This document shows positions 3,372 to 48,300 of a stretch of 51,648 nt of DNA, one piece after another (position 1 is the stretch's first letter; every line of letters starts with the position of its first letter). The DNA lies in contig JBNGIO010004087.1 of NCBI GenBank assembly GCA_049999805.1, positions 1 to 51,648 on the forward strand, in the 5' to 3' direction. The notes below the pieces were generated by a model. That model searched no databases. It was given only the letters and a program-made list of their open reading frames with translations, and was not told the DNA's origin. The DNA is from Folioceros fuciformis (Eukaryota). Both the position numbers and the translations under genes were made by a program.

Positions 3372-3549
3372 TTCCACCCCTCGTCTGACTCAATTATTTC
3401 TGCCTGCAATTGTGCCACACTGCTCACTCTGTCCGTGCGACTACATTCACTGCATCGCAAACCCATTTTGTACATGTATAAGGCCACCAAAACAATACGC
3501 ATCAAACCTGTCTCACATTGTCATCCATTCATCCTGTTTGACTCTTCCT

Positions 3550-3663
3550 ATATATTATTTCCAGTGTATAATTATTAGGCGGATACCAAGACCGAATAAG
3601 GTCCAGATATATTATTTCCAGTGTATAATTATTAGGCGGATACCAAGACCGAATAAGGTCCAG
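3550..3663. repeat. Perfect 57-bp tandem duplication upstream of DHAR
   Basis: ATATATTATTTCCAGTG...GAATAAGGTCCAG at 3550-3606 and again at 3607-3663. Confidence 0.9.
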
Positions 3664-4099
3664 CAGAAGTACAATGGTTGACATATTGCTAATGCGGCCT
3701 AATGACACTTCCAAGCTTTGTTTGCTAGGTGGGTGTCCAGGAGTTTATAGCAATGTAGTTATGGGACATCGAGAACTCGACTAGACCTTGAAGATGGCAT
3801 TTCTTTTAGGATTTTAAAGGGTGTCATCACAAATTTGTTGATGTCACACATCTTTATTGTCAAGTGATCTTTGAATATGCAACCTTTGAATTACAAAAGT
3901 TAAGGGAACATATACAAAATATGTGGAAAGACCTTTGCCCAAAGCTCAATTGTGGATGAATAAGAATTGTACTTGTTGTCACCGAACATTTCTGAACTTT
4001 AGATATCTGTGCTGGCTATGTAGTGTAATTATTTTTGTTATGGTTGAAATACGCTATTTAACCCAAATTGACACATTGGCTTTTATCAATGTTGTTTTA

Positions 4100-5760
4100 G
4101 TTCAAGCCTATGTTGCAACTATAGATCCTATTAAACCTGCTACATGTGAACAAGCTTGATCTGGACATAACAAAGAGAATTAAGAGACATAATAGAAATT
4201 TACACAGGAACTAGTTAAACTCCCACATAATAGGAAACCAATTCAATGTGAATGGGTTTTTCGTATTAAGTTGAAAGCATATCGTATTGTAGATTGTTGC
4301 AAGACACGAATACGTGCCAAGGTTTATAATCAAGTACTAGGAGATGATTATCATGAAACCCTTTCACCTGTTGTTAAGCTTCGAACTATTACGTACTTGT
4401 TAGCACTAGCTATTAAATTGGATTTAGATTTATAACAAATGGATGTTGGCACCACAACAAGTACTAGCTATTAAATTGGATTTAGATTTACAATAAATGG
4501 ATGTTGGCACCACTTTCCTACATGGGAAGTTAGAGGAACTTATTGTATGGAACAATTGGAAAGTTTACACACTAAAAACTTAGTGTGTAAACTTTTAAAA
4601 TGTATTTATGGACTCAGCAATCTCCTTTGAAGTCGTATACGTATACGGGCATCAATGGTACCCTTATAGAAATTGGTTTTATTTGTTGTACTTTTTGACA
4701 TCGACAATACTCTTATAAAACTTGTGATTCTGATGAGAATGTGTATTTACTTCATAAGGATGAAACTTGTAACCATTGCTCTTTATGTGGATGACATCAT
4801 TATTGCTATCAATAGCCAAAATTTATTGAAGGATGTAAAGGATTTTCTTAGTTCTAAGTATAAAATGAAGGACATTAAAACTTTTACCTATTGTCTTAGA
4901 GTTCAAATTCCTGCAAATAAAGATGAAGATACACTAAGCATCTTTCAAACTAAACATGCTATGGAACTTCTAAATCATTTTAAGCTTGAGGTAGCTAGTC
5001 CTTTAGCCACTCCAAATGCAACTAGTCAAGTCTTGTTTACCTTGGACAACTCTGCTATATATGTGGAATGCAAGAGAATGTTACAAACTCCTTATAGAGA
5101 GGCTGTTGGATGATGCTTGTTATTCCTTAATGGCTGGACTTGCACAGATATCATTCTTGGATATTCATTGTGTCAAAATTTCTCTCTAATCCAAACTTGG
5201 CTTATTGGGTTAGAATTAAACGTACTTATCAAAATTTGTCTAGTAATATAAATCTAAGCCTTTAATATAAGAGATATCGAACAAGAAAACTTACATTTGA
5301 GGGTTGGTCTGATGATAATTGGGAAATCAATCCTATTACGAACAAAAATTATTTACCTATTGTTTGATTGTGTGTAATGTAGTCGTTTGACAGACATGTA
5401 AAAGGCAACAAAGTGTGTCTTAGAGTTCCATGGAGAGTGAGTATGCAGAGTTAACACTAGCTAGTAAGGAGGCAGTAACCAATAGGACTTTGCTAGCACT
5501 AGATACTTTGCTAAGTGAGATGAGTTAAACTCAAGACTCATCTACTTTATTATATTGTGATACCATGTTTGTAATAGCCCTAACTAAGAATGCCAAGTAT
5601 CATGCTTGAACAAAGTACATACTTGCATATGATCATTTTATAAGATAAATAGTTGCTAAACATCAAGTTATTATTAAGTTTACTCCAACAAAGGAGAATC
5701 TTGCTGATATATTTTTCAAGTATATTTTCCAAGCTTTACTAAGTTCTATTTTAATTAGTT
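4100..5760 (+). mobile_element. Degenerate Ty1/copia retrotransposon pol remnant (RT-RNase H)
   Basis: Fragments PATCEQA, DYHETLSPV, MDVGTT, LYVDDIII (RT catalytic motif), PYREAVG, SSMESEY and ENLADIF, broken by many stops and frameshifts; AT-rich; internal ~58-bp duplication at about 4405-4514. Confidence 0.9.
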
Positions 5761-6344
5761 GAGGTTTTTGATTTGTCCATTGTCATCATGGCTTAACTTA
5801 ATATTTTATTATTTACTCTTATTAATATATATATTGGTAATTGTCTTACTATAAGATGTTTATCTAACAAGGATGCTAATAGCTATTCTTACTGCCCCAA
5901 ATCGTATGGTTTGGGCATCTCAGTGTCCTTTGCAGGGTTGAGGAGGTTGTGTGATGGCTCTGGGTACCTTGATGTCCTTCAGGTGTTGGTATGTTGAGGA
6001 GGTTGAAGGGTGGTTGTGCACGACAATCGTGTCCTCTGCTACTACTGTTGAGGGAGTTGCCGGGTGGCTGCAGCCAGCATTGTGTTTGATGCTCTTGGGC
6101 TGAGGAGGTTGTAGGGTGGCCTAACGCTGGAACAACTACTACAAGCTTAACCTTCAAGTATAAGTTGAAATTTAATACCCTTTTGGCCTTTGGTCCTTTG
6201 TTGAAATTTCAGGGTCTATCTGAGCTCCCCTTCTTGCATGCATGATGTATTCATCTACTTATTTATTATATTTATTATATTATTATAATTCATTTATAAA
6301 TACTTATCTATACTAAAATAACTTGTACCCGCCCATAGTCTTTT

Positions 6345-6546
6345 GTGCGGTGTGACATCACCGGCTCCTTCGGTAAGAATCGTGGGTGCGGTGTGACATC
6401 ACCAGCTCCTTCGGTAAGAACCGTGGGTGCGGTGTGACATCACCGGCTTCTTCGGTAAGAAGCTTCGGTGCGGTGTGACATCACCAGCTCCTTCGGTAAG
6501 AAGCTTCCGTGCGGTGGGACATCACCGGCTCCTTCGGTAAGAAGCT
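6345..6546. repeat. 41-bp minisatellite, 5 copies
   Basis: GTGCGGTGTGACATCACCRGCTCCTTCGGTAAGAA plus a 6-nt variable linker, starting at 6345, 6386, 6427, 6468 and 6509. Confidence 0.92.
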
Positions 6547-6914
6547 GGCCTCCATTACAACTAAGCTTGCCTCATATGGGATCTCACTCGGTCATGCTCG
6601 ACTCTTTAGTATCTTCCGATAAACGAAATTTTCGTATCTTCCCATAAAATTACGTAAATTAGGCCAACAGGCTAACTGCGCAATCGCACAAAAGGGTGCA
6701 ACGTTACCGACGCAAGGGTGCCCTGTATAGCCAAAGATTATTTCCACGACCGGCGCAATGTCAAATGGCAGAGGTGTTTGCGGCAGCTACCAATAGAACC
6801 GGCGTTGCCGCACTCTATGCATTCTATTTCTTGTTCACCATGGTCACGTCTTCGTTGTAGTCGCCCTATCTCTTATCTTGAAATAATCGATAGTTGTGAG
6901 AGTCTAACCACGCC

Positions 6915-8465
6915 TCTGTAATGCACCCGCGCTTGCATAGGCCATGAGAAGGCCAGCAAAAGCAACACGCTGAGCAACAATCAGGCCCTCCTGCTCCATT
7001 CGTCCATGACGAGCAAGATCGTCCTGTTGCTGCCGCACTAAGCATGCAGCTTCTAATCCACCACATCCTGCGTACGTGTCCAGCACAGACTTGCCCACCA
7101 GTATGTCATCTAGCTTTTCCGTTCCCACAGTCTGAGACTGCGACTGCTTGCCTTTCGGGGACACCACACTTGCACAGGGCTTCAGAAGGCAATAAGAAGC
7201 AACTTCGTCAGCCACGACGAGGCCTCTTGCTCCATTTGCCCAGACGCAGAGCAGTCAACTCTTGCCCAAGCCCTTGCTGTGCTTGTCCAGTAATCAAAGG
7301 ATTACTTGTCCCCACCTCCTTTGAGACCAAGCTGTCAAAAACTCAACAAGTGTCTCCAGCTTGCCACATTTTGCGAACATCTCCAGCAGGCACGTGCCCA
7401 ACAGTATGCTACCTAGCTGTCCTCTGTCCTCAATCGGAGAGTGCCCCCGCCTGCCATTTTGGATGGCATCTGCGATTGCACCAGGCTTCTTAAAGGTAGC
7501 AAAAGTAACCTCGTCAGCCTCAATCAGTCCCACCTGCTCCAATTTCCTCGACAGGACACGCTCGGCTCCATTGGCCCTCGCTGCGAATACCTTTTCCACG
7601 TCACCATATCCTTTAGTGCACAAGCTGTTGAAAACCCAGCGTCCACCTGCAAGTTTGCCGCAGTTTGTATATATGTCCACTAGACACTTGCCAGCAGGAT
7701 ATTATACAGCTGTGCTCAATCCACAATCCGTGAATGCAACCACCTGCCCTTCTGTAAGGCATGATAACATGATAAGCGACAACTAGGCACTCCTGCTCAC
7801 TTTGTCCGAAGAAAACACGTGCCTTATGACCAAACCGTTGCTGTGCACACCCAGCAATCAGGGCTGTCCGCATCACCACATCATTATGGCCAAGCTGTCA
7901 AAAACCCTGCGTGACTCGTCCTATGCCCCACATTTTGCACAAATGTACACCAGGCAGTTCCCAAGAAACAATCCAGGAGGAAATGCCGCTTTGAAGCCTG
8001 TCACATTGCATTTGTCTGCCAAATTCCAAGCCAGCGGGCAAATGCACGGGCTCGAATAGTGGCCACAAAGACGTGGGCATCTATCTGCTTTCACCTTTGA
8101 ACTAGACACATCTCATGATGCAGTTGCTTGCTTAATCGATTTCCCATGATTAGAACGAGCGAAGATTACGAAGGCCACATGAACGAATCTAGTTGGTCTA
8201 CAATGGTGAGCACATCCACGGCCCCTTGTAACCTACCTGCACAAGAATACATGCGCACGATATGGTTCCCCAAGTGCATATTTGACTCGTACCCACGTTT
8301 GTCTGTGAGATTAAGACCTTGTCGCACCACAACCAGATCCTTCGTGGCTGCACACAGTTCCAGCACAGTATAAAACGGAGAAATAGGAGACTTCGCCTTC
8401 GCCTCCGCAAAAATTCCAGGGCTGGAACAGCCTCCATAAGCTTCCTTTTCCCCCAAAACGCTGAG
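6915..8465 (-). pseudogene. Degenerate partial tandem copy of the PLS-PPR gene
   Basis: Frameshifted fragments FYTVLELCAATKDLVV..GYESNMHLGNHIVRMYSCAG, LGNCLVYICAKCGA, LLGTCLLEMFAKCGKLE and ASAGALQ match the adjacent intact PPR; no PDF or DYW part is seen. Confidence 0.85.
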
Positions 8466-8484
8466 CACCGGTGAGAGTTCACAC

Positions 8485-10770
8485 TCATGGTCGACCCTTA
8501 CAACTGCAACGACCCGCTTCAAATCGATGCACACGGTACCCATCCCTTACGACTATCTCTCTCTTTTCAACCCTTGACATGATCTCCGTTGAACTGTGGC
8601 AGTCACTGCACATGCGTAGATTCTTTGTTACCAACAAAGGAGTGCCACTTGGAGTGTTCAAGAGACCAAACGCCAGAGCTAGCTTCTCTGCATGACCGCA
8701 AAGCACGTCTTCCTTTTCCTTCTCCGAAAGTGGCTTCAACACCAACTTTGTCTGTGGTACATGGCCCCCTTCTTCCTTGAGACGTGCATTCATCCTCTCA
8801 ACTTTGAACGAAGGATCGTCTAAGTTTCCACCTACCATAAATGTATGTAACTGCCTATTCACCTCAATGCCCGCCACAGCAGGTTTCTTGCTAGCTCCTG
8901 CTACCATTCTCTGCACTTCAATCCTCTCTACATCCGTCCACATACCTGCATCTGCATAAACATTAGCCATTAGCACATATGCGGACGCCTGCTGGGGGTC
9001 CAATCTAACCAGACTTTGGAAACACCGCGTCGCTCTCTCTACATCTCCATGACTCTTACAGGCATTCAACAACGATATCAACCCCACAACATTGCTTTGG
9101 CTCTCACAAGACAACAGCATGCTTTCTGCCTCATCGAGATGGCCTGCGCGTCCAAGAAGGTCAATCATGCAATTGTAATGCTCAACCGTGGGTTTGATGC
9201 CATGCTGTTCAAGCATGGAATCAAAATGCTTACAGCCTTCATCTACCAGCCCATCATGACTGCATGCTACTAAAAGGTTCGTAAATGTAGCTTCATTGGG
9301 TTGAACACCAGCAACTAACATTTCCCCAAAACAAGCTACCGCGTTGTGACCTTCATCACAAGCACCGCACCCAGCGATCAGGGCCGTCCATGTCACCACA
9401 TCCTTTGTGGCCAAGCTGTCAAAAACCCGGCGTGCATCTTCCAGTTCGCCACATTTTGCATACATGTCAATCAGGCAGGTACCCAACAATACGTTATGCA
9501 GCTGTCCTCTTTCCACAATCTGCGAGTGCAGCTGCCTGCCATTCTGTAAGGCTCCAGCACTTGCGCAAGCCCTCAGAAGAGAAGCAAAAGTGACATGATC
9601 AGCCACAATCAGGCCCCCTTGCTCCATTCGTCCATACAGGGCAAGCGCCTCCTGATTAAACCCATGATCTGCATACCCAGCGATCAAGGCATTCCATGTC
9701 ACCACATCCTTTCTAGTCAAGCTGTCAAAAACCCGGCGTGCATATTCCACTGCCCCACATTTCGCATACATGTGGACCAGGGAATTGCCAACGAACAAGT
9801 CAGGAGGAACACCACTGTGCATCACATCAGAGTGCACTTTTCTGCCAGATTCCATGTCGGAGGCAAACGCACAAGCTTGAATGGCAGCTACAAAGACATG
9901 AGCATCCGCCTTCACACCTGAGCTGCGCATCTCATGGTACAGTTGTATGGCCTCCTTTGGTTTCCCATGTTTGGAATATGCAGAGATTATGGAGGACCAC
10001 ATGAAGGCATCTGGTTTGAGCACCCTGGTGAACACATCCATGGCATCTTCCACCCTACCTGCACATGCATACATGCGCAAAATATGGTTCCCCAAGTATG
10101 TGTTTGATTCATATCCAAGTTTTACAACAAGATCATGAACTCGTCGCCCCACAACCAGGTCCTTCTTAGCTGAACACAGTTTTAGCACTTTGTAAAATAG
10201 AGACTGAGAAATTGGACAGTCTGTCTGCGCAAGAAATTCCAGGAATGTAACGGCCTCAGTAAGCTTCCCCTGCCGACATAAGGTGCTCACCTTCAGAGCC
10301 GCTACTCCCATTTCCGATCCAGCACCCCTGCCTAGCTCAGGCTTATCCAAAACGCTCGACTTGCAGGGAGATGCACCGTGACCCATTTCCAAATCCAAAA
10401 ATACTAGCTGCTCATCCACCCAAGCTGGCCTGGAAATGTTGTCAAGCCAGAGGACCTCGCCAGTCATCTTACGCCTAAAGTCAGGGGACCGGAAACTCTT
10501 CTTATCTCGTCTGTTATCCCACCACATGGAGGGGTCCAAAAAAAAATTTCGCCACAACAGTTCCTGCTCGTGGCGACCACCATCGCTGGAAAATCGCTCC
10601 CCAGTGATGCGCTTCCCCGGAGTTGCTGGGTCTCTAACTTGAGTCCGCCTCAGTGTTTGGTTGTTTGTGGCATCACTCCCGCAGGTAACGAGAGGGGTGG
10701 CTGGTGGAAGCACCGAACACCTACCAACTTGTTGCGCCCACGACGGATCCAGTTGCAACACTTTGGCCAT
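8485..10770 (-). CDS. PLS-class PPR protein with N-terminal OSB-type PDF motif, E1/E2 and DYW:KP (GRP-type) deaminase-fold domain; putative organellar U-to-C editing factor
   Basis: Uninterrupted ~761-aa ORF: PDF motif W..FF.DP..WWDNR..K....PDF..K.TGE.LWL....P.WV, about 12 P/L/S repeats, E1, E2, KKPAVAGIEV box, HAEKLA, CSDC, C-terminus CSCKGRP. A further 5' exon at about 11180-10986 (donor GTAGGA, acceptor near 10789) is possible. Confidence 0.93.
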   Translation of the reverse strand: MAKVLQLDPSWAQQVGRCSVLPPATPLVTCGSDATNNQTLRRTQVRDPATPGKRITGERFSSDGGRHEQELLWRNFFLDPSMWWDNRRDKKSFRSPDFRRKMTGEVLWLDNISRPAWVDEQLVFLDLEMGHGASPCKSSVLDKPELGRGAGSEMGVAALKVSTLCRQGKLTEAVTFLEFLAQTDCPISQSLFYKVLKLCSAKKDLVVGRRVHDLVVKLGYESNTYLGNHILRMYACAGRVEDAMDVFTRVLKPDAFMWSSIISAYSKHGKPKEAIQLYHEMRSSGVKADAHVFVAAIQACAFASDMESGRKVHSDVMHSGVPPDLFVGNSLVHMYAKCGAVEYARRVFDSLTRKDVVTWNALIAGYADHGFNQEALALYGRMEQGGLIVADHVTFASLLRACASAGALQNGRQLHSQIVERGQLHNVLLGTCLIDMYAKCGELEDARRVFDSLATKDVVTWTALIAGCGACDEGHNAVACFGEMLVAGVQPNEATFTNLLVACSHDGLVDEGCKHFDSMLEQHGIKPTVEHYNCMIDLLGRAGHLDEAESMLLSCESQSNVVGLISLLNACKSHGDVERATRCFQSLVRLDPQQASAYVLMANVYADAGMWTDVERIEVQRMVAGASKKPAVAGIEVNRQLHTFMVGGNLDDPSFKVERMNARLKEEGGHVPQTKLVLKPLSEKEKEDVLCGHAEKLALAFGLLNTPSGTPLLVTKNLRMCSDCHSSTEIMSRVEKREIVVRDGYRVHRFEAGRCSCKGRP

Positions 10771-11938
10771 CAATCTTACAGGTACCTTCTGCGGAGCAAT
10801 AACTAGTCTGGTCCGGCAGGATGCTATGGGCTGAAGACAAAACCCGACAAGTGTTTTTAGTTAAGTTGAATAAACAATTACCTAGTCTAATAGCTCCTAG
10901 TAGCACATTTGCAATGGATGCCACTTTGCAAACAAAGTGGAATCTTGGTTTCACTGTGCTTTATGTTGTGCTCACTCTTTCCTACACTCATTCGGTCTCG
11001 GGCGCCACAGTATCCCGCCGGACCTAGGGAGTCAGGAAAACGGAGCCGCTGCAGTACGGCGCCTGATCTGCGAGGCCTTTTGGCGTCAATGGGCTCGTGG
11101 CCGATCGTCACTGGCCAAGCCTGTGTGGGTCTTGCACTCTGTTCCACCAAGCGCATAGATATTTCTGAAATCTGATTTTTCATCCTTGAGTCACATCGCA
11201 CTCGAATAGCAGCCGTTTGAATAAAAATTGGAGGAATTATTTATAGCAGGCAATTAGGTTTGGTGATAAAAAGATGCGGTAGGCTAAGTAGCATGTAGGA
11301 CGGTATGGAGTGCCAAGAGTTTCAAGACTCCCATGATGCTATGGCTACCTACTCTATACATAGGATTGAAATTATGAATTGGCCTTGTCTCCTTTGCCAT
11401 GAAAGGAGCTTTTAGCTCCCTATGCTTCCTCTTCCATAGTCTCATCTTCTTAGGTAGCCATGATCGGTCTACTATGCTATGCTTAGGGCATCCAACTAGA
11501 TGCGTGCCTTATCATATCAAGGGTTGCCCCCAATTATCTCTTGATAAAGAGTAAGCTTCAAGTGGGTGGAGTCGAGGCAAAAACTTACTGTAGTGGGAAG
11601 AGTTGTTGTGGTGCTACAATTTGGAATGCTTGGATGTATGGTCATATCCAAAATGCTAGGATCTTGTGCTCTTTCTTAAGCATTAGCGCAAGCAACCTTG
11701 AAGGAATAGGCTACGAGAGTCTTTGAGAAGAGTCAGCTGCACTTGCTTCCATTGTTTTTGAAGGAGGGAATTTTAAAGCCCTTGGATCCCCCAAAAAGAA
11801 GTATGATGGAGAAAGAGACAAAACAACCCTTGCTCCTAGATGAAAAAAGAGTTCCTCATAGCCTATTGGACATATAAGGTGTGGATAGAAACCAAGTGAT
11901 TTTAGGTTTTGACTTTCGGATGCTCAAGGCAGGTGGCA

Positions 11939-12160
11939 TTTCTCTTCAAGCTTATGGGACTTTACCCAAGAGCTACTTGAAGGTCATTTTCACTAGCTTT
12001 TCTCTTAACGCTTATGGACTCTGCCAAAGAGCTACCTGAAAGGTCATCTTCACTAGCCTTTCTCTTCATGCTTATAGGACTTTGCCAAAGAGCTACTTGA
12101 AGGTCATCTTCACTAGCCTATAAGTGATGTTGTCCAATATAGTGATGTTGTCCAATATAG
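11939..12160. repeat. ~60-bp tandem repeat (3 copies) followed by an 18-bp duplication
   Basis: TTTCTCTT..GCTTAT.GGACTTT.CC.AAGAGCTACTTGAAGGTCAT.TTCACTAGC three times, then GTGATGTTGTCCAATATA twice; probably transposon-derived. Confidence 0.8.
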
Positions 12161-13822: not shown

Positions 13823-15386
13823 ATGGCGGACTCCGACTCCTTCTTCGACGCTCAGGCCCGCATCTTCTCCCGCATCAAGTGAGTGCTGCGGAGTGACACC
13901 GTCGCTGAATTTGTGGCTCGCTTGGCGATGCCTCGCATCGGGTGCTTGTGGCTGATGCGCGTGGGTGTGGAATGTGGGAGCTGAGCGATTTTGTTGTGGT
14001 GGAACGCAGGGCGGCCCCCCATCTGCAGGAGGTGGCAGCGAAGAAGCTTCTGGCAGTCGCAGAGAGCCTTGAGGCGGAGACTGCCTCGGCCCCCGCGGAA
14101 ACCGAATCCGTCGGCAAGCACCCGATCGGGGACCTGGCGGAGGCCTTCAACAAGTTCAAGATCGACAAGTTTTCGTAAGTCGTATTGTCCTGCAAGTTCC
14201 AGTACTTGGATTTGATGTGGGGTGGCGTTGCCAGCACAGCTGGTGGATCGTCAGCTGGTGACTCATCAGCTAGCTGCCCTTGGACTTGCCGGTGTTGCTG
14301 TGTCCTTTCAGGAAGGAGGAAAGGTACCAGACATTGAAGAGGGGGCAGTGGCCCAAGGTAAGAAGCTGCATCTAAGTACACCTCGATACCATACGGGAGG
14401 GGAGTGTCCTAAACACTCGGTTCGGTTGTACTTGTCTATCTGCCTGCAGTTCATGATCATCACGTGCGCAGACTCCCGAGTGGCCCCTGCCACCGTCCTG
14501 GGGCTGGAGCCTGGAGAAGCTTTCGTCATCCGCAACGTCGCGAACTTGGTTCCCGCTTACGAGAAGGTGTGTGTGACAGGCCTCCCACGCTGCCGCAATT
14601 TAGCGAAGGCTAGCCCTCTGCTTCCTTTCCTTGTCTCACACGAACGAGCTTTGATGGATGGCTGGCTTTTGCAGGGCGGGTACCCCAGCGTCGGGTCTGC
14701 TCTCGAGTATGCTGTCAAGCACCTCAAGGTAAGAACAGTCCACGAATGCCATCGGCCTCGTCTCTATGCGCTTGCTGCTGATCCTTCTCCCCCTCCCCCT
14801 CCTCCTGTTATTCCTGCTATCAATCTGCAGGTGAAGAACATCATAGTGAACGGACATCACAGCTGTGGAGGCATTGCCAATCTTTTGCACACGCAGGGAG
14901 GCAAGGCCAACTGCAAGTAAGTGTTGTTGCTTTCAGCCCAGTCGACTGACGATGCTTCCAACGCCAGAGTATTTGCTCTCGCTGACATATGGCCTGCTGG
15001 TGCACCAGTCACGAATTCGTTGAGGATTGGACCAACATTGCCGCCGACGTCTACACCAAGACGGAGGCGGAGCTCAAGGATGCTCCCGCGGATGAGAAGC
15101 TGCGCTTCGCCGAACGGGTGGGTATCAGTACCAGAAGCAGTACGATTAGATATCATAAGGTCGCGGCTGCCTTCTCATCTCAAGATCCTATCGCATGGCC
15201 TTGTCTTGTGTTTGGCAGGAAGCGGTCAATCTGTCACTCGCCAACGTGCTCACTTACCCATTTGCTGCCAAGGCTGTCGAAGACGGCAGTGTAACGCTTC
15301 ACGGTGCTTACTACGACTTCGTGAACGGAGTTTACGAGCACTGGGACTTCGTGAATGGCAAGCCTGGACCCAAGCAAATTCTATAG
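13823..15386 (+). CDS. Beta-class carbonic anhydrase, 8 coding exons from the ATG at 13823; an N-terminal extension is possible
   Basis: Spliced motifs GQWPK, FMIITCADSRV, GEAFVIRNVANLVP, SALEYAVKHLKVKNIIVNGHHSCGGI and EAVNLSLANVLTYPF..LHGAYYDFVNG; Zn ligands C-x-D-S-R and H-x-x-C intact; GT-AG introns. Confidence 0.95.
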
Positions 15387-19282: not shown

Positions 19283-21413
19283 TCAGCAGATAAGTCGCCT
19301 CCTGGCCTTCGTGTGTTTGGCCATCTCCAGACGCATTCTCTTGCACAGCTTCTCCAGCTCATCAACCCTGGATTGAACTTGCCTCAAATTGAGCCTCAAG
19401 TCGTCATTTTGCTGACATACGTCCCTCATGTTTGTGGACTCTGCACCTCCGTCTGCGAGAAAGTTACCAGAATCGAAAATCTTGCCCACCAATCCGCCGC
19501 TGTTGCTCCGAGCCGCCTTTTTCTTCTTCCTCGTGTAAACAGCTGCAACTGCTGACCTCAGCTGAATCTGTTGTGCCAGTAATACTTGCAAACTCACACA
19601 AGGCGGAAATGTTTTGTTCTTGGTAAGGTGCTTGCAAGTATCCATGGACAGCTTCTGATAGTTGAGGACCCCGCACAGGCTCACTGCTTCGGACTCATCA
19701 ACGTTAGGATGGGCCTGCAAAAAAATATAGGAAGACTAGCCGTCAGCAGAGAACTTCAACAAGATGCTGTACACGAAGTTTTGAAAAGAACTTTCCGACC
19801 AGAATTTTCTGAACTGGTCGGCAGAATTGACAGGATGGTGGTAAGAAGAAACATCACCTCGAGATAGATATCGATAGCTCTGTACAGTCCATCATGACTA
19901 CACCTGGCAAAGTCTGGAAGCGCTCCAGCAAGTGCTTCAAACTTGGCGGCTTTCAGGTGCACGTCCGCAGCGATTTCACTCAAGTATTTGTCCAGAAGAT
20001 CCCCCACCGCGTACAAGGCCTTCTGCACTCCGAAGGGACCAATATTTTCATCCAACATCCTGGAACCGTCCTTGTGGGTGTCGAACAACCAAGCAAGGAA
20101 GCCATGTTCCTGCTTCTTCTCAGCAGCCAGCATGGAGGCTTCCAGGAGAGCCTCCCGATCCTTGAGGAAACAATCCACCAATCGCAAGACCAGGTCCACG
20201 TCATACAGGGGCGCACAATTGCGCGGGGGGAGCGTAGGGACCAGAATGTTGTCGAGGGTGGCCGCATCCAACTGAGACCCAATCTTGAGCTCGAGCTGCT
20301 TTCTGCAAGCGTCGTTGGCATCCAGCACAAAAGCCACCCTGAGTAGCCCAAAGAGAGTCTTACAGGAGGTAGATCCCTCCTCCAGAGACGAGAGCAAGCT
20401 GACCACAATTTCCAAAATGTCGCACTGTACTCCCTGGGAGTAGCTAGGCATCATAGGTAGCTCTTCCGTGGGGGTCTTCTTCTTGGGAGATGGGCAGAGG
20501 GATCCGCTGAAGGCAACGAGCGGAGAAACCGAGTTGCATCCGAGCACAGGCAAAGACTTGCGAATGTAGTGGAGGAGAAATCTGGAGAGCAGCTTGTGAT
20601 CCACCCGGTAGGCAGCGAGCACTTTCACCACTTTCTCCACCACATAAACTGGCAAGGAGCACAAATCCTGAAACCACCAGTACTTCTTGGGAGCGAGGGA
20701 ACCGAAGCTGCTATCGCTTGCGGTTGACATGCGGTGAGAGTCGAACGACTTGTGAGAAGCCGTGGGGCTGGTGTTCCCAGGACCTCCGGAACCAGCTCCG
20801 AAGGCAGCGGAAGCCTCCACAATCTTTGTGGCCAAGGACTCCACGCATCTTTGCACCAGCGGCGCGCTCTCGGGAAAGGAGAGGAGAGATTCGCAGCTCC
20901 TGAGCACCGTGACGCTCTCGTGCCAGCTCATCACCACGACGTTCTTGAGAAAAGATTCCGTCCTCCTGAGCAGATTGGCCTTCCCCTGTTCCTCCGTCAT
21001 ATCCAGCACCTCAGCGATGCAGCGCAGGCGCGCCACATTCGCGGAGGTGATGACAATGTCCCCGTTGCTGTAACAAAACCTAGTGGCGAGCTCAAACGCC
21101 TCCGGTCCTCCGGGGACATTGTCCAGGGCAATGAGGACAGGATCCGGCAATCCCGCGACGGAGCTGGTTCTGTCCGCCTTGCACGAGGTCCTGACGAGCC
21201 TGAGGAGCAGCGCACTGCGGTGAAGAAGATCCTGCAACGACAGAGCAAGGCCGTGAGCCAAACAACCCCACTGACAGGGCCCGACCTCAGGATCCCGGGC
21301 GCGCGCAAGCACGCCCGGCACACAGCACCAAGTGTCATCCATAATGTTACCGAGTTGAGAAAGAATGTCTCCTCCCCGTTGATCTGAATCTGAAGGTCGC
21401 AAACATAGGCCAT
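19283..21413 (-). CDS. NPH3/RPT2-like BTB-POZ protein, 3 exons
   Basis: Exons 21413-21351, 21231-19858, 19714-19283. Motifs CDLQIQING, PGGPEAFELATRFCY, WWFQDL, IGSQLDAATLDNILVP, YDVDLVLRL, DKYLSEIAAD, HDGLYRAIDIYLEAHP and a C-terminal coiled coil. Confidence 0.93.
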
Positions 21414-21435
21414 GGCCAGGCCGGCAGTCCTAGGC

Positions 21436-21535
21436 NNNNNNNNNNNNNNNNNNNNNNNNNNNNNNNNNNNNNNNNNNNNNNNNNNNNNNNNNNNNNNNNN
21501 NNNNNNNNNNNNNNNNNNNNNNNNNNNNNNNNNNN
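21436..21535. other. Assembly gap (100 N)
   Basis: Run of N immediately 5' of the NPH3 start codon. Confidence 0.99.
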
Positions 21536-35765: not shown

Positions 35766-36615
35766 TCACAATTTGTCGAGCTGGTCCAAATCAATAGTGG
35801 ACGGGAACCTAATCTGCTGAGGTTCGGACGTCATCACAGCCTGAAGGGTCTTGTAATTGACCTCAAAATGGGTGGGCTTGTACTGAGACACCGTCTTCCT
35901 GTCCAAGCTCTTCCGTATCATACTCCTGACCACAGGGAGAGCATCCTCCCGTACAGATATCAAATCCCCGCAAGATACCTGATAGCTAGCCACATTAACA
36001 ATCTGGCTGTTGACACAAATCTTCTTGTGACTGATCAACTGCCTTGCCTGTGGCATGGTGGAGCAAAAGCCGAGACGCACCAAGCTCCCGTCCAGTCGCT
36101 TCTCCAAGTTATACAGTAGAGCAGTCTTCTTATCCAAAACGGTTTCCGTCTTATTCCTGTGCAGCTTCCTGATAGGCGCATCCCCGTAGAAATCAGAAAG
36201 CTTCCTTGTCGTCTCCAGTTGCTTGGCGAACTCCGATTGCTTAGGTTTCCTCTTCGGCGGCGGGGCCTCCGGAACCATGGCACCCTGAGCCCCACCACCC
36301 CCGGCATTCCCACGCCCGATTCCCCCAGCCTGCAACAAACCAAGCAACCAAACTGGTTTGGCCAAAACCGGTACAACTCGACGACCATCACGTGAGCTGC
36401 AGCTACAGGCACGGGCCACTCACCGAGTCACTGGTATCAGACACGCCCTCCTGGGCGCCAGCAAAAGTTGCAAACCCTTCCACCAGCTGGTGCAATCCCC
36501 AGGAAGAAGCGCACCGCGCAGGACAACCATCCCCGATTGCTCCAGCCACACTAAGCTGCTTGCCGGCATGGAAAAGCCCGTGGCGGGCCAGAAGAAGTCC
36601 CTTACTCGCCTGCAT
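35766..36615 (-). CDS. rps4: Nuclear-encoded mitochondrial ribosomal protein S4 with acquired N-terminal presequence, 2 exons
   Basis: Exon 1 36615-36424 (64 codons, MQASKGLLLARHGLFHAGKQL..), phase-0 GT-AG intron, exon 2 36329-35766 with KLSDFYGDAPIRK, LLYNLEKRLDGSLVRLGFCSTMPQARQLISHKKICVN, KPTHFEVNYKTL and EPQQIRFP..IDLD, typical of bryophyte mitochondrial Rps4. Confidence 0.9.
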
Positions 36616-37841: not shown

Positions 37842-39204
37842 TAATGTCATAGTGAGAGTTTCACACTCAGCCAACCATCTCTAATTGCTTTTTTCTATCT
37901 TGATTATTATTCAGAACAATAGGACATTATTGTACCATTGCCAATACTTTGTGCTTGTACTTGCTAGTAGTATAGTGTTTTCTTCATCTCATACAAACTT
38001 TGAGTATGGTTCATAACTAATTTTATTTTGTATGAATAATAATTTAATTATATTTTACATTGGTACATAGATGTAAGTAAAGCTAAAAAACACTTGAGCT
38101 AAAGAAATTTGGGGTTCTTAGACCTATGAATCACATCTTGTTGAAATAAACAAATTTGATGTTATAATTTTTGTTCATAATTACACAATACAAACACTAT
38201 ATAATTAAATTGCACTTTCCTCAACATGATACCAAATTAAAAGTAAGGCTAGTGATACATAGAAAAAAGTGCAAGGAAAATTTTTATGTGAAGAAAGAAA
38301 GAATGGAGGAAACTAGTAAAGTATTAAGGTACAAAAATATGGAACATAATAGTATATACAGCTCTTATTCAAGCCTAAATGTATGTCAATCCTAGGGAAG
38401 GCTTGTACTCCTGTCTATAAATATATTAAAAATAATCATAATTCTATCTTAACTATATTTGATCATAAAAATATTATTTTTTTTAAAAACATTAGAATTA
38501 TTTTTTAGTTTACAATACGTCTTGAAGATGGTTGGAAAGGTATATATATCATAGATGAAAATATTATTATTTTGATACACGTCATACATCATGGATTAAA
38601 ATATTATCATGTTATTGTACTTCATATATTATGGATTAAAGTATTATTATTTTTAATAAGATACCAAAATAATAATTTTTTTATACATATGGAAGATATT
38701 GCTCTTCAAACAAGTATGTAGATAAATGTTTAAAATTAATGTTTTTGGAACTTGTTTGAATATCCATGGATGTAGGTTTATTAGAACTAGCATGTGTTTT
38801 ACTAAATTATTAAATGTAATGTATCACTTTAAGTAAGGAAAAAGAATGGTGAAACACAATGACATCTCAAGTTAGGTAAATATACAACAATCACTAGTTG
38901 AATTGAAAAGGGAAAATAATTAGTTCCTTTTCAAGCTACAATCATATTACAAGTTCATGAGGGGATCACCATAACCTAAAAAAAAAAAAAGTTAAATTGT
39001 TGTTGCATGCATCTTGTGCTAATGCCAAAGTAATACTACTTCATAGATGAAGAATAAGAATTAGAGAAAGAGAGATAGTAGGATCTACTCATTGTCAGCT
39101 AATCCATTATTGGTTTCAAAGAAAAATATTCTTTCATCCTAGGTTTTAGATTACTTATCCTTGACTTAATTCTCAATAGATGGAAGGCTATAAACAAGTT
39201 AATT

Positions 39205-39350
39205 GAAAGCTAGTAGATGTACTACATTAATTTAAAATTAGTCATGAAAGTTAGTAGATGTACTACGGTTAGTTTGAAATTAGTCATGAAAGCTAGTAAA
39301 TGTATTATTATGTTAATTTAAAAATTAGTCATGCTATTAAAAACTAGTCA
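39205..39350. repeat. ~42-bp AT-rich tandem repeat, 3 copies
   Basis: GAAAG(C/T)TAGTAGATGTACTAC..TTA.TTT.AAATTAGTCAT repeated inside an AT-rich block at about 37900-39700. Confidence 0.75.
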
Positions 39351-40695
39351 TGCTAGGACATAGAGAGCAGAGCACGGTTGCCCAACGTGTCCTTTCATGG
39401 AAGAGACTTGGAAAGAAAAAAGAGAGTTGCATGGTAGCCATAGTTGGTGAAGTACATAGTACTCTCTATTTTGTCCTCCTTACATCTAGATCTATTATAA
39501 AGAACTCAAGGCCTTTAGATCTATCCACCCCCTGAGAAAATATGAGTATGAAATAGTTATCATATTATACTGAAATATACTAAATAAATAATATACTAAA
39601 TAAATAAGAATAAATAATTATGGTATGTTAAGCTATATATATCTATGTGTTAAGATAGAAGACTAATTAGTACGTGAAACATGGTAAAACTTGTAGAAGG
39701 CATACAAGGGACTCAAGAAGGCTGACCTAAAGGAGCAGATGCAGCAAGGAAGTACGGAGGGACGAGCTAACTAAACTAAAGGTTTGTGACTACGGTTGCG
39801 GACAGATGGGGTTTGCATATGAACGGGATAAACGTATCGGGCTTGGTTAGCTGGTAGGAGTCGGGTGACATGAGGTGTGGTTGTTTTGTTTTGGGCCGTG
39901 AAGGAGCAAAAAGAGGGGTTTTCCAGCTAGATGGAGCGGGGTTATTTATGATATGAGCCGAAGCTGGGTTTGGGGCCCTTGCTGTGTCTCTGGCTGGCTG
40001 GCTGGCTGGCTCTTGTCTTCTCTTCCCTTCCTGGCTGCTTGTTCTCTTGCCTGCTGGTCTGAGAGGCAGCAACATGAGGCATGACCTCAGGACATGACCA
40101 TTCGTCCAAACCCTGCAGCAGCATCTAAGCAAAGGCAGCAGCAGGTAACGACTAAACTGCGTCCAGCAGCGGCAGCGGGCCTCATTCACAGGCGGGGCCT
40201 CGGATCATAACCCCTGCTGCTCTGCTGCTCCACGATTCTGGCCACGGCCGGCACAGCCTAGCCCAGCCCAGCCCAGCCGACCCGAGCGTGTGCAGGATTC
40301 GGGTCTCCCGGGGAGTGTGTGCTGGCACGGAGGCCCTCCGCGGCCGCGCGCTCTCTGTTTTAATTTTGCTGGATTTGGCAGCTTAGGTGGGCTTAGGCCC
40401 TCCCTCTGCTATCGCCTCTGCTGCCTTCTGCCTGCTGCCTGCTGCTGGTGCTGTTGCTGCTGCCGCTGCAACCCAGCCAGGGAGCACGCAAAGGAGCCAT
40501 TGGGTGTGCCTTGTGCTCCTCGTTCGCGTGTCGAAGGAGGAAGGATTCAGGTCTGGTGGATCTCGCGGGAGCCGCTGCCGGAGCTTGGAGATTGCAGCAC
40601 CAGGATTGCGGAATATTGGTAACTGGCCCGAATTGCTCCTCTCTGGGTTTTGTGCCATGTGCGCATTGCGGGGATGGTGCAGACTGCGGGTTGAG

Positions 40696-42316: not shown

Positions 42317-45300
42317 ATGCAGACACAGGCTCAGGTTCCTGGGCAGGCACCTAACCAGGCAACTCGTGTGCAACAGAACGCAAGTTCTGTCTTGTCTCAG
42401 AGTGGGAATGTTGTGGGCAGCTTTAAAAAGGCTTGGCATACGGAGCAGGATGTTTCGCTGCGCCGAGGTGTTTGTGAACAGATGTAAGCACATAGTCTCT
42501 CTCATCCAGCATGTGTGATGACAGGACTTATTTGAAGTAGCTCAGACTCATCGGATGCAGAGCCTGGCTGAGGCTGTTTGATATTTCCTGAGATTTCAAA
42601 TGGCAGTGGTTGTTTGACACATCTAGCCTTTGCTCCCATGCAACAAGATTTCTGTAGTGGTTGTTGTATCTTAATGTGATGCCCCTGTTTGTTAGCAGCA
42701 ATGTAGTTCGATTGTCCTCACCTTGGGTTTTGCTGGTTGTGAAACAGTCTCCAGCTATTTAAGAAACGGAAACCAATCGTGACCTCTGACTTCCAACAGA
42801 AGCTACCAGATTTTGTGAAACGCCTGGAGGAGGCCTTGTATCTCAATGCCGGATCAAAGGTACGGCCCTGTCAAGTGATCAGGACAGAGACTTCCATGTT
42901 TCTCTTTCCTTTGGCCTTTAACTGTTTTCCTTGTCTCATTGTGCAGGAGGAGTACTCAGACATAAACACGCTGGAGACGCGACTTCACGCTGTGGCACAA
43001 AGCTTTCCAGCTAAGACCCAGCATCTGCCTAATATGGTACCTAATCCAGCCAGTGCAAGCACCATGATGCCAACCCCTGGGACAACTATGATGCCAACCC
43101 CAGGCGGTGGCACTGTGATGATGTCTGGTGGAAACGGGCTAAATTCATTGCAGGCACCAGGGAACGGACATGTTTTGTCTGCAATAGGGTCTGGAGGCTC
43201 CAAAGTCGCTACCTCAGGGTCAGGGGGTTTGATGATGCCCACTCCTGGTATAGGTTCCATGATGCAAACTGCAGGTAATGGCACTGTGATGCAAGCAGGG
43301 AATACTGTTATCCAGTCTCCTGGAGGTATTGGAGGTTTGGTGCAAGGGGGTAATATGGGTGCACCTGTGCATTCAAATAACCTCAGTACAGGTGCTATGA
43401 GCAAGATGATGCAAGCAACAGGTCACGGAAATAGCATGTTTTCTAATGCTGGAAGCACCATCCTGTCAAATTCTGGTCACCCAAACTCTCTGACCAGCCA
43501 GCAAGTTTACAGTGGCATGAGGATTGCCCCGACCCAAGTTGCACCAGGAATGAGTATGCCCCAGACAGGCAGTCAAATGATTCCCACACCAGGTTTAACG
43601 GGCTCCCAGTCTGTGTCCCCTTCTGTTGGTGGATTGACCATGGCTAACTCAGGGTCCCAGCAGCATTACACTGCACCATCGTCACAGGCATATCGAACTT
43701 TGAATGGGCAGCTGCCATCGAATGTGAATGGTAGCCTGCAACGAAAGAACTCGCTGGGAGTTCCTGGAATGAACAGTGGCGTCCAGATGATGCCCAATGG
43801 ACAGCACTTAAGTCTAGGTGCAAATGTGCATAATGCTGCTGGCTACGTAAATGCAGGGCAGTTCAGCAATATGTCATCCCAGCAGCAGCCAGTTCGCGTT
43901 GCTCAACAGCGCCAATCACAACTACGACTGCCAGGTTCTTTCTCTTTCAGTATGATTGAGTGAGTGATCACGTTATTTGCTTAAATCTACATTGTCTGAC
44001 TCTGACCAATCATGCAGGTAATGGATATTCCATGAATCATTCAGACATGAATGGGTCAGGCGGTTTGTTTCCTGGCACTCCATCCTCCGGCTTAGTTGGA
44101 GGGAACATGAACCTTTCATCAATGGTGTCGCAACCATCAAAGATGATACCAGTACCTGGCTTGCCTCAACAGCAGGGAATTCTTCAACAGCAGTTACAGC
44201 AACCTCAGCCCCAGCCCCAGCAGCCGCACATCCAGGCAACTAGTATGCAACAGAATATTGGTGGGATGAACAGGGGCCAGCAGCTACCTTTGCAGATGTC
44301 CAAGAGTCAGGGAATGTTTCAACAGGTATCAACAGTTTCAGGGCAAAAGCAGGGTGGGCTGATGGATCAGTCACAGCAGTCCATGGCATTTCAACAAGCT
44401 TCATCTGACCAACATCATCCTCCCCGTGGACAGATGCCTTTGTCGCAATCCCAGCCATTGCAACCGCTTCAGCACCAGGGCATGCAGCAGAACATGAGTC
44501 AACATTTGCAACTGAGGCAGCTACAACAGCCACGGCTCCAACAGCAGCTGCAGGCTCAGCAGCAGCACCAGCAGCAACAGCTTCCTCAAGTACAGGCACA
44601 GCATCCGGCAATCTCATCACAGCAGCAACAGTCTGTGCCTGTTCAGCCAACACAAGGCCAGTCGCAGATCCATCAGCAATCACAACAGGCACAGTCTCTT
44701 CCTCAGCTGCCAGCAGAGCACCAGCAGTCACAGCAAACGCAGGTGCCGCAGTCTCTGATTGCACATCCAACCCTTGCACAACGTCCTTTACGGCAGAGCC
44801 AGCGTTCCTTCGCTCAAGGGCACCAAGTACTGCAGCGGCAGCACATTTTGCAAGACGGAGGACAGCTGCAGCAGTCGCACGTGCAGCTACAGCAGCCAGT
44901 GTCATCATCAAGTATGATGATGACACCTGGCGATGAGAATATGAATGATGATGGGAGTGGCTCTGTTAGTGTCAATGAGAGTGTGGGCGGAAGTGTGAAT
45001 GGCAATGGTGACGGAATCGGAAGTAGTTCTGGGATCGGAAGTAGTTCTGGGAATGGCAATGGCAATGTTAATGGTAGTTTTAACGCCAGTACCAACACAC
45101 CTGAACCTGGACCTGAACCTGGAACTGGAACTGGAACTGGGCCTGGATCTGGGCCTGGATCTGGACCTGGATCTGGACCTGGCCCTGGGCCTGGCAATGA
45201 AAATGTCCACCCAGTTCCAGGACCTGATGTGCGAGATCAGCGAACACTACAGTACACCAAGCAAAGAAAATGGCTCCTGTTCTTGCGCCATGCTAGCAAG

Positions 45301-48300
45301 TGCCAGGCTCCTGAAGGGCTATGCCCAACAACTCCACATTGCCATGTTGCCCGGCAACTGTGGGCACATCTCTGCTCTTGCCGACTTGAGCGGGACTGCA
45401 CGTACACAAGGTGCACTGCGTCCAGGACCTTGGTTCGCCATTATCAGCAGTGCAGGGAGCCACGGTGTCCTGTGTGTGCTCCTGTCCGGCAGTATCTTCA
45501 ATCACAACCCAGGCCTCAGTCCTCTGGACAGGTGCAACTAGGGCAAAATCAGGCTTCTTTGTCGTCTCCCCAAACTCCGGGACAGGTTACTGTGGGATCC
45601 CCTTCTATGGCTGTCACGTCCGCAGGGTCAATTCCTCTCACAAGCCTTCCTCCAGTGTCACCACAAGTTGGAACTGCAACACAAGGTGTGGACATCGATG
45701 GTCCACCACCTGCTAAGCGGGTGAAGGTCGAATCCCCAGGGATACAGCACCAGTTAGGTCCTTCTAGCAAGCAGGTACTGACAGCTTCGAATCTGCTGAA
45801 CCCTGTGCCACGTTCTCAAGGTGTGAAGCTGGAAGGAAATCCATCTATGAAGACAGATCTGGGACCACTTTCACTGCGAGCAGACTCCCACGTGGGTAAT
45901 GCACAGCGGCAAAAACAGCCAAGTAGTCTTGGGCCTAAGCCTGATTCTGAAAGTACAAGTACATCTGGAACTCAACTGGTTAATATAAAAGCAGAGCCAG
46001 GCAGTGTGTTTGTGAAGCAACCGCAAGGAGCTCCAACAGCCCCAGCCACTCAAGTGGCACCTGCCAACTCTGTAAAATCAGGGAAACCGAAAATTGTCGG
46101 TACTTCTTTGACTGAACTATTTACACCCGAACAGATCAAGGAGCACATAGCAGGTTTACGACAATGGGTTGGCCAGGTAAGGCCCACGCTCTCCCTTTTC
46201 TTGAAGCTGGAAACCACTTTCAATGCTTACCCCCAAATAAGCTCTACAAAAGTGGGTTCCTTCGGGTCTTTACTGTGCCTGGTGGTTGAAATGCAGAGTA
46301 AGGCAAAGGCAGAAAAAAATCAAGCAATGGAGCAGAAGATGACCGAGAATTCATGTCACCTTTGTGCAGTGGAGAAGCTGACTTTCGAGCCCCCTCCAAT
46401 TTATTGTACAGCATGTGGTGTCCGCATTAAGCGGAACAGCAGCTACTACACGTTATCAGCCGGAGAGACTAAGCACTACTGTTGTACAGCTTGCCACAAT
46501 GAATGTCGGACTGAAAATGTTGAGTTGGATGGTATTAGCTATCCAAAAATAAAACTTGAGAGACGAAAAAATGATGAGGAAACTGAGGAAGCAGTAAGCA
46601 CAGTTAACAGATCAATGTGTATTGTAATACCGTATGACATGTCGTCAATTTTAATATGCTTGCACGTATTGATACCTTTCGTTGGTTTGTTGTTGATTGT
46701 GCAGTGGGTGCAATGTGACAGTTGCAATTTATGGCAACATCAAGTTTGTGCTCTTTTCAATGGTCGCCGGAATGAAGGAGGTGACGCAGAATACATATGT
46801 CCTCAGTGCTTGTCAAGTCAAATGGAAAACGGGGATAGAAAGCCCTTGCCACCATCTGCTGTTCTTGGTGCAAAGGACATGCCGAAGACTTTTCTTAGTG
46901 ATCATCTTGAGAGCAGGTTAGCAAGGAAACTTGATGAGGAGCGTCAGGAGCGTGCTAGATTTGCTGGCAAGTCCAAAGAGGAGGTAATTTTTTTTTTTAA
47001 ACATCTATTCTAGATACGAATTGCTGCCACAAGGAGAAGATGCAATTTGAAAGCGTATTGTCTTGAGAGTATTGAGGTTTCTGACTTCTAAGATGTTGCA
47101 TTTTGTGTTACTTGCTTGGCTAATCAGGTTCCTGGAGCAGAAGCTTTAGTTGTCAGAGTTGTTTCTTGCGTGGACAAGAAGCTAGAAGTTAAACAGCGGT
47201 TCTTGGAGATGTTCCAAGATGAAGACTACCCCTCGGAGTTTCCCTACAAGTCAAAGGTCAGCGTGTGGCAATAATGCCCGTATCACTCATTCTGGACCAG
47301 GAAATCATTTATCCATGCCTTGACGTTTCTCCGTTGTGATGTATCCTGATCCCCTAGTTTTGTGTGCAGGTGATTCTACTTTTTCAAAAGATTGAAGGGG
47401 TCGAGGTTTGCTTGTTTGGCATGTACGTACAGGAGTTTGGGGCGGACTGTGCACACCCCAATCAGAGGCGAGTGTATCTTTCGTACCTCGACTCTGTTAA
47501 GTACTTCAGACCAGATGTGAAAACAGTGACAGGCGAAGCACTTCGAACGTTTGTCTACCATGAAATATTGGTGAGTGTTTGTACATCATATGTGAGCTAT
47601 TCTCACGCTCTGAGTGTGACAATCTGATGTCAACCGTGGTGTGCAGATAGGGTACCTAGAGCATTGTAAAAGGCGTGGGTTCAGTAGTTGTTATATCTGG
47701 GCCTGCCCTCCTCTTAAAGGAGAAGATTACATTCTCTACTGCCATCCTGAGATTCAAAAGACACCGAAGTCTGATAAGCTTCGAGAGTGGTAAGCCTTTG
47801 TAGTCTGCAGTCAGTGTTCCACTCGACTTCATGCCTTCAGTTCGCTAACTAATTGACCTTATGCCATCAGGTACCTGACCATGCTGAAAAAAGCAGCTCA
47901 TGAATCAATTGTTGTGGAGGTCACAAACCTGTACGACTATTTCTTTGTTTCACAAGGAGAAACTAAGGCCAAGGTTACTGCTGCAAGATTGCCATACTTT
48001 GATGGGGATTACTGGCCTGGAGCTGCCGAAGACATGATCCTGCAGCTTCAGCAAGAGGAGGAAGATGGGCGCAGACTGCAAAAAAAGGGCAAACCTAGGA
48101 AGATGACAACTACGAAGCGGAACGCAAAAGTTGGTGGTCAGGCTGAACTGCCTAGCAATGCTTCTGACGACACTCGGCTAATGCATAAGGTAATGCTTTC
48201 ATTCCCATCGTCTCGATAAAACTTCGTGAAATTTGGTATGGTATCTGTCATGGGGTGTCATCTAGACCTGCCTCATCTCTCTGCGATATTGACACTGATC

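Follow-up and report, generated by a model that had tools for sequence, protein, structure and literature searches.

A natural PPR-DYW:KP gene of the GRP variant as a candidate U-to-C RNA editing factor with an N-terminal PDF motif

INTRODUCTION

The closest described relatives of the gene reported here are the hornwort PPR-DYW:KP proteins of the GRP type, which are attributed to Gerke et al. 2020 (via PMC9478123; all papers are cited here for those portions of their text that were available). The DYW:KP class is defined by a Lys-Pro box (PMC11845758), and its domains have a length of 132–133 aa without the xHP element, versus 136 aa in the PG type (PMC9478123). Hornworts have two variants, GRP and DRH, and the KP domains of ferns and lycophytes fall into other subclades; in the GRP variant, Glu takes the place of the lysine partner (‘K103’) of the DYW Asp (PMC9478123). 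In the present study, we analysed contig JBNGIO010004087.1 of the Folioceros fuciformis assembly GCA_049999805.1 (hereafter ‘the window’, meaning the whole stretch of 51,648 nt) and describe a gene on its minus strand that encodes a PPR protein with a C-terminal DYW:KP domain of the GRP variant, probably a factor for uridine-to-cytidine (U-to-C) RNA editing.

Members of this class are expected in the lineages with organellar U-to-C editing, which are hornworts, lycophytes and ferns. What such proteins do is known only from consensus designs. KP2 and KP3, which are consensus sequences of GRP proteins, edited U to C at ∼26% and ∼22% in Escherichia coli, with no cytidine-to-uridine (C-to-U) editing detected (PMC9478123), and both have been called obligate U-to-C editors (PMC11332814). 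With the substitution K88A, the proteins KP2, KP3 and KP6 lose U-to-C editing and become C-to-U editors (PMC11845758). In the route proposed for the class, a lysine attacks C4 of uracil to give a Schiff base, which is hydrolysed to cytidine; the lysine is possibly consumed in the reaction, and crosslinks between edited RNA and protein have been found, with a mass adduct of ∼319 Da that depends on this lysine (PMC11332814, PMC11713852).

A second described system bears on the N-terminus of the protein. The PDF motif, ∼50 aa long and named for Pro-Asp-Phe, occurs in organellar single-stranded DNA (ssDNA)-binding proteins; in AtOSB1 it suffices to bind ssDNA (PMC6963530, PMC13393729).

For U-to-C alone among the pyrimidine transitions, the available programmable RNA editors remain weak. 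The U-to-C enzymes tested so far are consensus chimeras, which end as covalent RNA–protein adducts in bacteria (PMC11332814). Compared with these systems, the gene in the window is an ordinary member of a family that has been in print since 2020, with both the GRP variant and the designed U-to-C activity already described.

RESULTS AND DISCUSSION

Architecture of the gene

The gene occupies a long uninterrupted frame, whose parts are as follows (residue numbers are those of the open reading frame, ORF).

8485..10860, minus strand: stop-to-stop open frame of 791 codons, from the ORF list
8485..8487, minus strand: stop codon of the PPR-DYW:KP gene, directly after GRP
8485..10770, minus strand: proposed coding sequence of 761 aa with Met31 of the frame as putative start, from Met positions and homologs
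10579..10770, minus strand: N-terminal 64 residues (ORF 31–94), rich in S, T, R, P and A
10393..10578, minus strand: OSB-type PDF motif (ORF 95–156), LLWRNFFLDPSMWWDNRRDKKSFRSPDFRRKMTGEVLWLDNISRPAWVDEQL, from profile search, hmmsearch envelope and BLASTP against OSB proteins
9091..10308, minus strand: PLS-type PPR tract (ORF 185–590), from Pfam PPR, PPR_1, PPR_2 and PPR_3, with boundaries set by hand
8890..9090, minus strand: E1 (591–624) and E2 (625–657) PPR-like motifs, from Pfam E_motif and hand parsing
8488..8889, minus strand: DYW:KP domain, GRP variant (ORF 658–791), from Pfam, alignment, trees and fold
8686..8694, minus strand: HAE, with the Zn-binding His and the catalytic Glu (HSE in the PG type), from translation and alignment
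8623..8625, minus strand: lysine equivalent to Lys88 of the designer KP proteins (ORF residue 746, in TKNLRMC), from alignment
8599..8610, minus strand: CSDC, the CxxC Zn ligands, from translation and alignment

On the minus strand, 8488..8889 encodes 134 residues, exactly KKPAVAGIEVNRQLHTFMVGGNLDDPSFKVERMNARLKEEGGHVPQTKLVLKPLSEKEKEDVLCGHAEKLALAFGLLNTPSGTPLLVTKNLRMCSDCHSSTEIMSRVEKREIVVRDGYRVHRFEAGRCSCKGRP, or 133 aa if counted from the KP lysine. These coordinates are precisely those that a first-pass annotation, made from the letters of the window, had assigned to the domain: the translation runs from KKPAVAGIEV to CSCKGRP and then meets the stop, and all strings quoted there (KKPAVAGIEV, HTFMVGGNLDD, HAEKLA, CSDC and the terminal GRP) are present. 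Pfam places DYW_deaminase on ORF residues 699–789 (E = 3.9e-34) and E_motif on residues 604–666 (E = 3.2e-16). The PPR tract comprises 12 PLS-type motifs, parsed by hand as (P)-L1-S1-P1-L1-S1-P1-L1-S1-P2-L2-S2, and the domain is preceded by the P2-L2-S2-E1-E2 lead-in of a PLS-class PPR protein, as in the described GRP type.

Met31 was chosen as the start because it is the sole Met upstream of the conserved PDF motif, and an upstream exon is possible. In the homologs P0002, P0005 and P0017, the PDF motif is preceded by 42–77 residues. Judged from its composition, the segment of ORF residues 31–94 is likely an organelle transit peptide. As read from the sequence, the order of parts is putative transit peptide, PDF motif, 12 PPR motifs, E1, E2 and DYW:KP(GRP), and the locus is read as an intact, intronless plant nuclear gene, most likely from a hornwort to judge by the GRP and DRH ends.

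Class features of the domain

The domain starts with the KP box KKPAVAG, in which Lys-Pro stands in place of Pro-Gly, and is 133 aa long when the KP lysine is taken as its first residue. Aligned with 74 relatives, it has a gap of three residues opposite the xHP of the PG rows, which agrees with the earlier remark that the canonical SHP segment is absent or shortened. The stretch HAE...CSDC matches the HxE(x)nCxxC signature, with HAE replacing the HSE of the PG type. The equivalent of Lys88 (position 88 from the KP lysine) and Met92 are present in KNLRMC, RVHRF is present as well, and at the ‘K103’ position the domain has Glu (CHSSTE), where DRH and PG rows have Lys. The last residues before the stop are ...CSCKGRP. 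With the hornwort GRP type and with KP2 and KP3, the domain shares the KP box, a length of 133 aa with xHP missing, HAE, Lys88, Met92, the Glu at ‘K103’ and the GRP end. Motif, alignment, tree and fold all support placing it in the GRP variant of the DYW:KP class.

KP2 and KP3 are set apart by description: they are consensus designs, whereas the window holds a natural single gene, and the protein that it encodes brings a PPR tract of its own and, at the N-terminus, a PDF motif. In comparison with the other four GRP proteins, which end in GGRP, the window protein ends in KGRP. The DRH type, which is the basis of KP1, resembles the window domain in its KKPAKACIEV-like box, HAE and KNLRMC, and forms the sister grade within a clade of 17; but in DRH proteins the terminal triplet still contains Asp and the ‘K103’ position is still Lys, where the window protein has Gly and Glu. 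More distant are the DYW:PG proteins (OTP86, DYW1, PPR56 and the synthetic 9kfx), with which the window domain shares the fold (TMq 0.76–0.91), the Zn ligands, the catalytic Glu and the active-site Lys at 32–48% identity. These proteins have the PG box, xHP, HSE, a DYW end and C-to-U activity, in contrast to the KP box, missing xHP, HAE and GRP end of the window domain.

The Lys–Asp contact described for the PG type is replaced in the GRP type by Glu (ORF residue 759; 8584..8586, minus strand) and Gly-Arg-Pro (within 8488..8499, minus strand). As a charge swap, the Arg of GRP might pair with the Glu after CHSST. Of the five GRP rows, only three have Glu in this column and the remaining two have T and Q, whereas K is found in DRH rows.

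Relatives and phylogeny

Homologs were searched with the last 202 residues as the query, and 79 proteins were found at E ≤ 0.001. The four best of these 79 matches (P0002–P0005, from Logan assemblies) end in GRP, are 67–72% identical over the last 202 aa, and carry [KR]KPAxAGIEV and HAEK. They are followed by ∼15 matches ending in DRH or close variants, then by fern proteins (Adiantum, Ceratopteris) with other ends, and finally by DYW- or DFW-ending PG proteins of lycophytes, mosses and seed plants. No identical protein was found among the 79 matches, and a wider search of representatives (2497 proteins, E ≤ 0.001) added no further GRP-ending protein; with the window included, GRP ends are found in 5 of the 224 collected proteins. 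The first-pass annotation had placed GRP-type ends in hornworts, ferns and some lycophytes. The hornwort part of this statement agrees with the literature, and the fern and lycophyte part is not supported: the available text of PMC9478123 puts the KP domains of those lineages in other subclades, and a GRP end was found in none (0) of the named fern or lycophyte KP matches.

The domain alignment and trees were built from 75 of the 80 proteins, and P0023, P0031, P0057, P0059 and P0079 were left out for cut C-termini or the lack of an HxE signature. In the maximum-likelihood tree (75 domains, 137 columns; supports are ultrafast bootstrap/SH-aLRT, and the bootstrap, at a correlation of 0.986, was not fully settled), the window domain lies within a clade of five GRP-ending rows (100/97), and its nearest relative is P0002 (76% identity). 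This clade is nested in the clade of 17 GRP and DRH-type rows (99/87), and one branch parts 34 KP rows from 41 PG rows (100/92). Because the class labels derive from the same columns as the tree, 22 diagnostic columns (box, indel, the A/S of HxE, the K/E column, RVHR and tail) were removed for a second, quick tree, in which the SH-aLRT supports were 92 for the GRP clade, 89 for the KP/PG split and 96 for the clade of 17. The terminal branch of the window domain is 0.21 long, versus a median of 0.25. Thus, in both alignment and trees the domain clusters with KP and not with C-to-U (PG) domains, as the class named by the first-pass annotation implies; the clustering with C-to-U types that, by its own criterion, would have spoken against its assignment was not seen.

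Some of the representatives matched the DYW:KP query in two stretches, which may be tandem or partial domain duplications; P0081 (463 aa), P0082 (531 aa) and P0175 (957 aa) were noted in this respect.

Catalytic residues and predicted fold

Eight positions were invariant in all 57 aligned sequences and are kept in the window domain, i.e. H66, E68, K89, C94, C97, H98, H121 and C130, where numbers count from the first K and K89 is Lys88 in KP numbering. C128 is also kept. With an uninterrupted frame and all invariant Zn and catalytic residues as well as Lys88 in place, the gene deserves the description ‘apparently intact’ that it had been given.

An AlphaFold2 model of the domain, computed from the 57-sequence alignment, reached a mean pLDDT of 90.1, and the predicted structure has the DYW deaminase fold. 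Its best structural match in the PDB is the synthetic PPR-DYW/RNA complex 9kfx_A (E = 2.5e-16, TMq 0.91, rmsd 1.5), followed by OTP86 (7o4f/7o4e) and DYW1 (7w86) at TMq 0.76–0.79, with bacterial deaminase toxins far behind (TMq 0.58 or lower). A sequence search of our PDB copy returned three PG-type chain sets only, and no KP-type structure was seen there.

Proposed function and alternative explanations

Since every residue needed by the lysine model is present, we adopted the reading that the protein is a site-specific organellar U-to-C (‘reverse’) editing factor working by the lysine route, and we assign to it a probability of roughly 0.72. That engineered KP proteins can edit U to C, a premise of the first-pass annotation, is correct for the GRP-based KP2 and KP3 (PMC9478123, PMC11845758), and the window protein is a credible natural counterpart. 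The gene would be expressed and its product targeted to an organelle, where the PPR tract would read a stretch of RNA with S2, the last PPR motif, at −4 from the edited base, and the Zn-dependent C-terminal DYW:KP domain would convert the target uridine to cytidine. The catalytic Glu and Zn would assist, and the cytidine would then be freed by hydrolysis.

A target element can be predicted from the P and S motifs. Their fifth and last residues are ND in S1a, SD in P1a, ND in S1b, ND in P1b, TD in S1c, TN in P2 and NN in S2. In the PPR code, SD is read as G and NN as a pyrimidine. The remaining assignments are T(S)N for A, NS for C, TD for G and ND for U (PMC12733224), and S2 was placed at −4 because E1 stands at −3 (PMC9478123). 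The predicted upstream element is 5′-U G n U U n G A n Y n n n U*.

Several points weigh against the U-to-C reading. The predicted target element has only seven informative positions, and the P2 motif has an unusual core, GCGACDEGHN. Activity data come entirely from consensus designs, and no assay of a native DYW:KP protein is reported in the available portions of PMC9478123, PMC11332814 and PMC12733224; moreover, those designs stall in bacteria as RNA–protein crosslinks (PMC11332814). Lys88 is conserved in C-to-U domains too, and therefore it is not the sole setter of direction; KP6 performs both reactions (PMC9478123). GRP proteins are under-represented in transcriptomes (PMC9478123), and the gene adjoins a decayed PPR paralog.

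Some of these points lead to other explanations. The protein could be a working editing factor that edits C to U in its organelle, or that carries out both reactions as the designer KP6 does. KP6 showed its dual activity in human cells, where a single substitution is enough to flip the preference (PMC9478123, PMC11845758); the Zn/Glu deaminase site of the window domain is complete, and the Lys88 shared with PG domains fits either direction. We nevertheless regard this as improbable, since the window domain lies inside the GRP clade and both GRP-based designs edited U to C, and no C to U, in E. coli (PMC9478123).

Loss of function is also rather unlikely. In this view, the gene is one paralog in a PPR family that is large and turns over fast, and it has fallen silent or was disabled recently, inactive although its frame is still open. 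Such a fate is suggested by the frameshifted PPR fragment 83 bp downstream, by a copia-type reverse transcriptase (RT) fragment ∼3.4 kb away, by the large and transposable element-associated PPR families of hornworts (PMC13386178) and by the scarcity of GRP proteins in transcriptomes noted above. It is opposed by 791 codons without a stop, by the retention of all invariant columns of both the DYW domain and the PDF motif, and by a terminal branch shorter than the median. A third explanation, that the protein is an RNA binder which only marks a site or stabilises a transcript, with the DYW:KP domain structural or recruiting another enzyme, seems very improbable to us. In its favour, many PLS proteins use a DYW domain supplied in trans and some DYW domains are inactive; against it, the window domain retains the catalytic His and Glu, the two Cys, Lys88 and, for the second zinc, H98, H121, C128 and C130.

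If the U-to-C reading is correct, a natural and complete GRP-type gene with its own PPR tract could be paired with its native site and used to probe turnover of the native enzyme. Such value is common to many hornwort paralogs, and a single locus is useful and unsurprising. The fusion of PDF motif and PPR repeats is a small extra lead.

The N-terminal PDF motif

The PDF stretch is conserved in 8 of the 224 collected DYW proteins (3 of 5 GRP, 1 of 39 other KP and 4 of 157 PG). A profile built from seven of these eight stretches found 279 proteins at E ≤ 0.01. Among the 120 matches listed of the 279, 75 had PPR Pfam domains, mostly from the lycophyte Diphasiastrum, Sphagnum mosses, the liverwort Calypogeia and the fern Adiantum, 24 had the SSB domain PF00436, and 21 had none or another domain, several of the latter being named OSB2 or OSB3. 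The fusion is thus shared with many PPR proteins of non-seed plants. The window stretch was also compared by BLASTP with 11 proteins that carry the name OSB1, OSB2 or OSB3, and the best match to each showed 44–58% identity over 50–78 residues, and the matches fall on the C-terminal repeats of the OSB proteins. The two systems thus share a ∼50-aa motif with the Pro-Asp-Phe signature; but OSB proteins have an OB-fold/SSB domain N-terminal to PDF, whereas in the window protein the PDF motif stands at the N-terminus, ahead of the PPR repeats. Neither the whole ORF nor its N-terminal 160 aa gave an SSB or OB match in Pfam. Since the PDF motif is present but the OB-fold is not, the window protein is not an OSB. 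P0175 has another short match to the PDF profile close to its C-terminus, which may likewise be a tandem or partial duplication.

Other searches with this stretch returned little. A Pfam search of the N-terminal 160 aa gave no family for it at E ≤ 10, and a single-sequence word search gave 22 candidates, none at E ≤ 0.01. Matches in the ESM Atlas were phage clusters only, at 0.75–0.83, below the useful range, and were rejected as noise. The motif was modelled as helix, β-hairpin and helix with a pLDDT of 90.9. Foldseek found no match to this model in the PDB at E ≤ 0.001 (best E 5.4), and the best Z in a wide VIA-align search was 3.3; neither search pointed convincingly to a solved relative.

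A description of a PDF–PPR fusion was not found in the literature searched, which did not extend to the original OSB paper or to the PPR surveys of 2020. The text of a 2026 survey of PPR domain fusions contains neither ‘OSB’ nor ‘PDF’, and in the one paper containing both PDF and PPR terms, they are unrelated. The PDF motif is the sole feature of the protein for which no description was found in that literature, and we claim no priority for it. It is possible, though we are doubtful, that PDF is a working and undescribed accessory nucleic-acid-binding module of the PLS editing factors of non-seed plants, both C-to-U and U-to-C, and that native proteins may complete turnover with it. If so, natural full-length proteins may finish U-to-C turnover where the consensus designs, lacking the PDF module, stall as crosslinks.

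Genomic context

Read contigs of four runs (X1–X4) were collected on 6000..12000 and amounted to 1667–2832 pieces per run, mostly paralogs at 90–95% likeness. Run X3, which comes from one study, consists of contigs and is only guessed to be RNA, gave exact contigs over 6614..8549 and 10069..10525. The former, 1941 letters long and of the same guessed kind, joins the PPR fragment to the 3′-end of the gene. Over 10623..12000, where the DNA runs X1 and X2 have cover, this putative RNA run is without contigs.

The other features of the window are as follows.

6916..8402, minus strand: decayed PPR paralog fragment, like ORF residues 211–491 (26–52% identity), from tblastn and the ORF list
4670..5113, plus strand: copia-type RT fragment, Pfam RVT_2 (E = 9.3e-10)
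14216..14920, plus strand: β-carbonic anhydrase exon
19756..21429, minus strand: NPH3-family gene
35766..36419, minus strand: S4-domain ORF
43960..49997, plus strand: CBP/HAC-like gene with TAZ, PHD, ZZ and TAZ domains

The PPR fragment starts downstream of the stop of the gene, at the distance given above, and shares its strand. Its sequence is broken across two frames and lacks an N-terminal part, E1, E2 and DYW, and it is therefore taken as a decayed paralog. The RT fragment sits in an AT-rich block at ∼3500..5900 (∼33% GC), and a second AT-rich block at ∼37900..39700 (20–35% GC) has no similarity to it. An assembly gap of 100 N at 21436..21535 adjoins the NPH3-family ORF, and this gene model is probably incomplete at the gap. 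The window as a whole is a gene-dense plant nuclear region.

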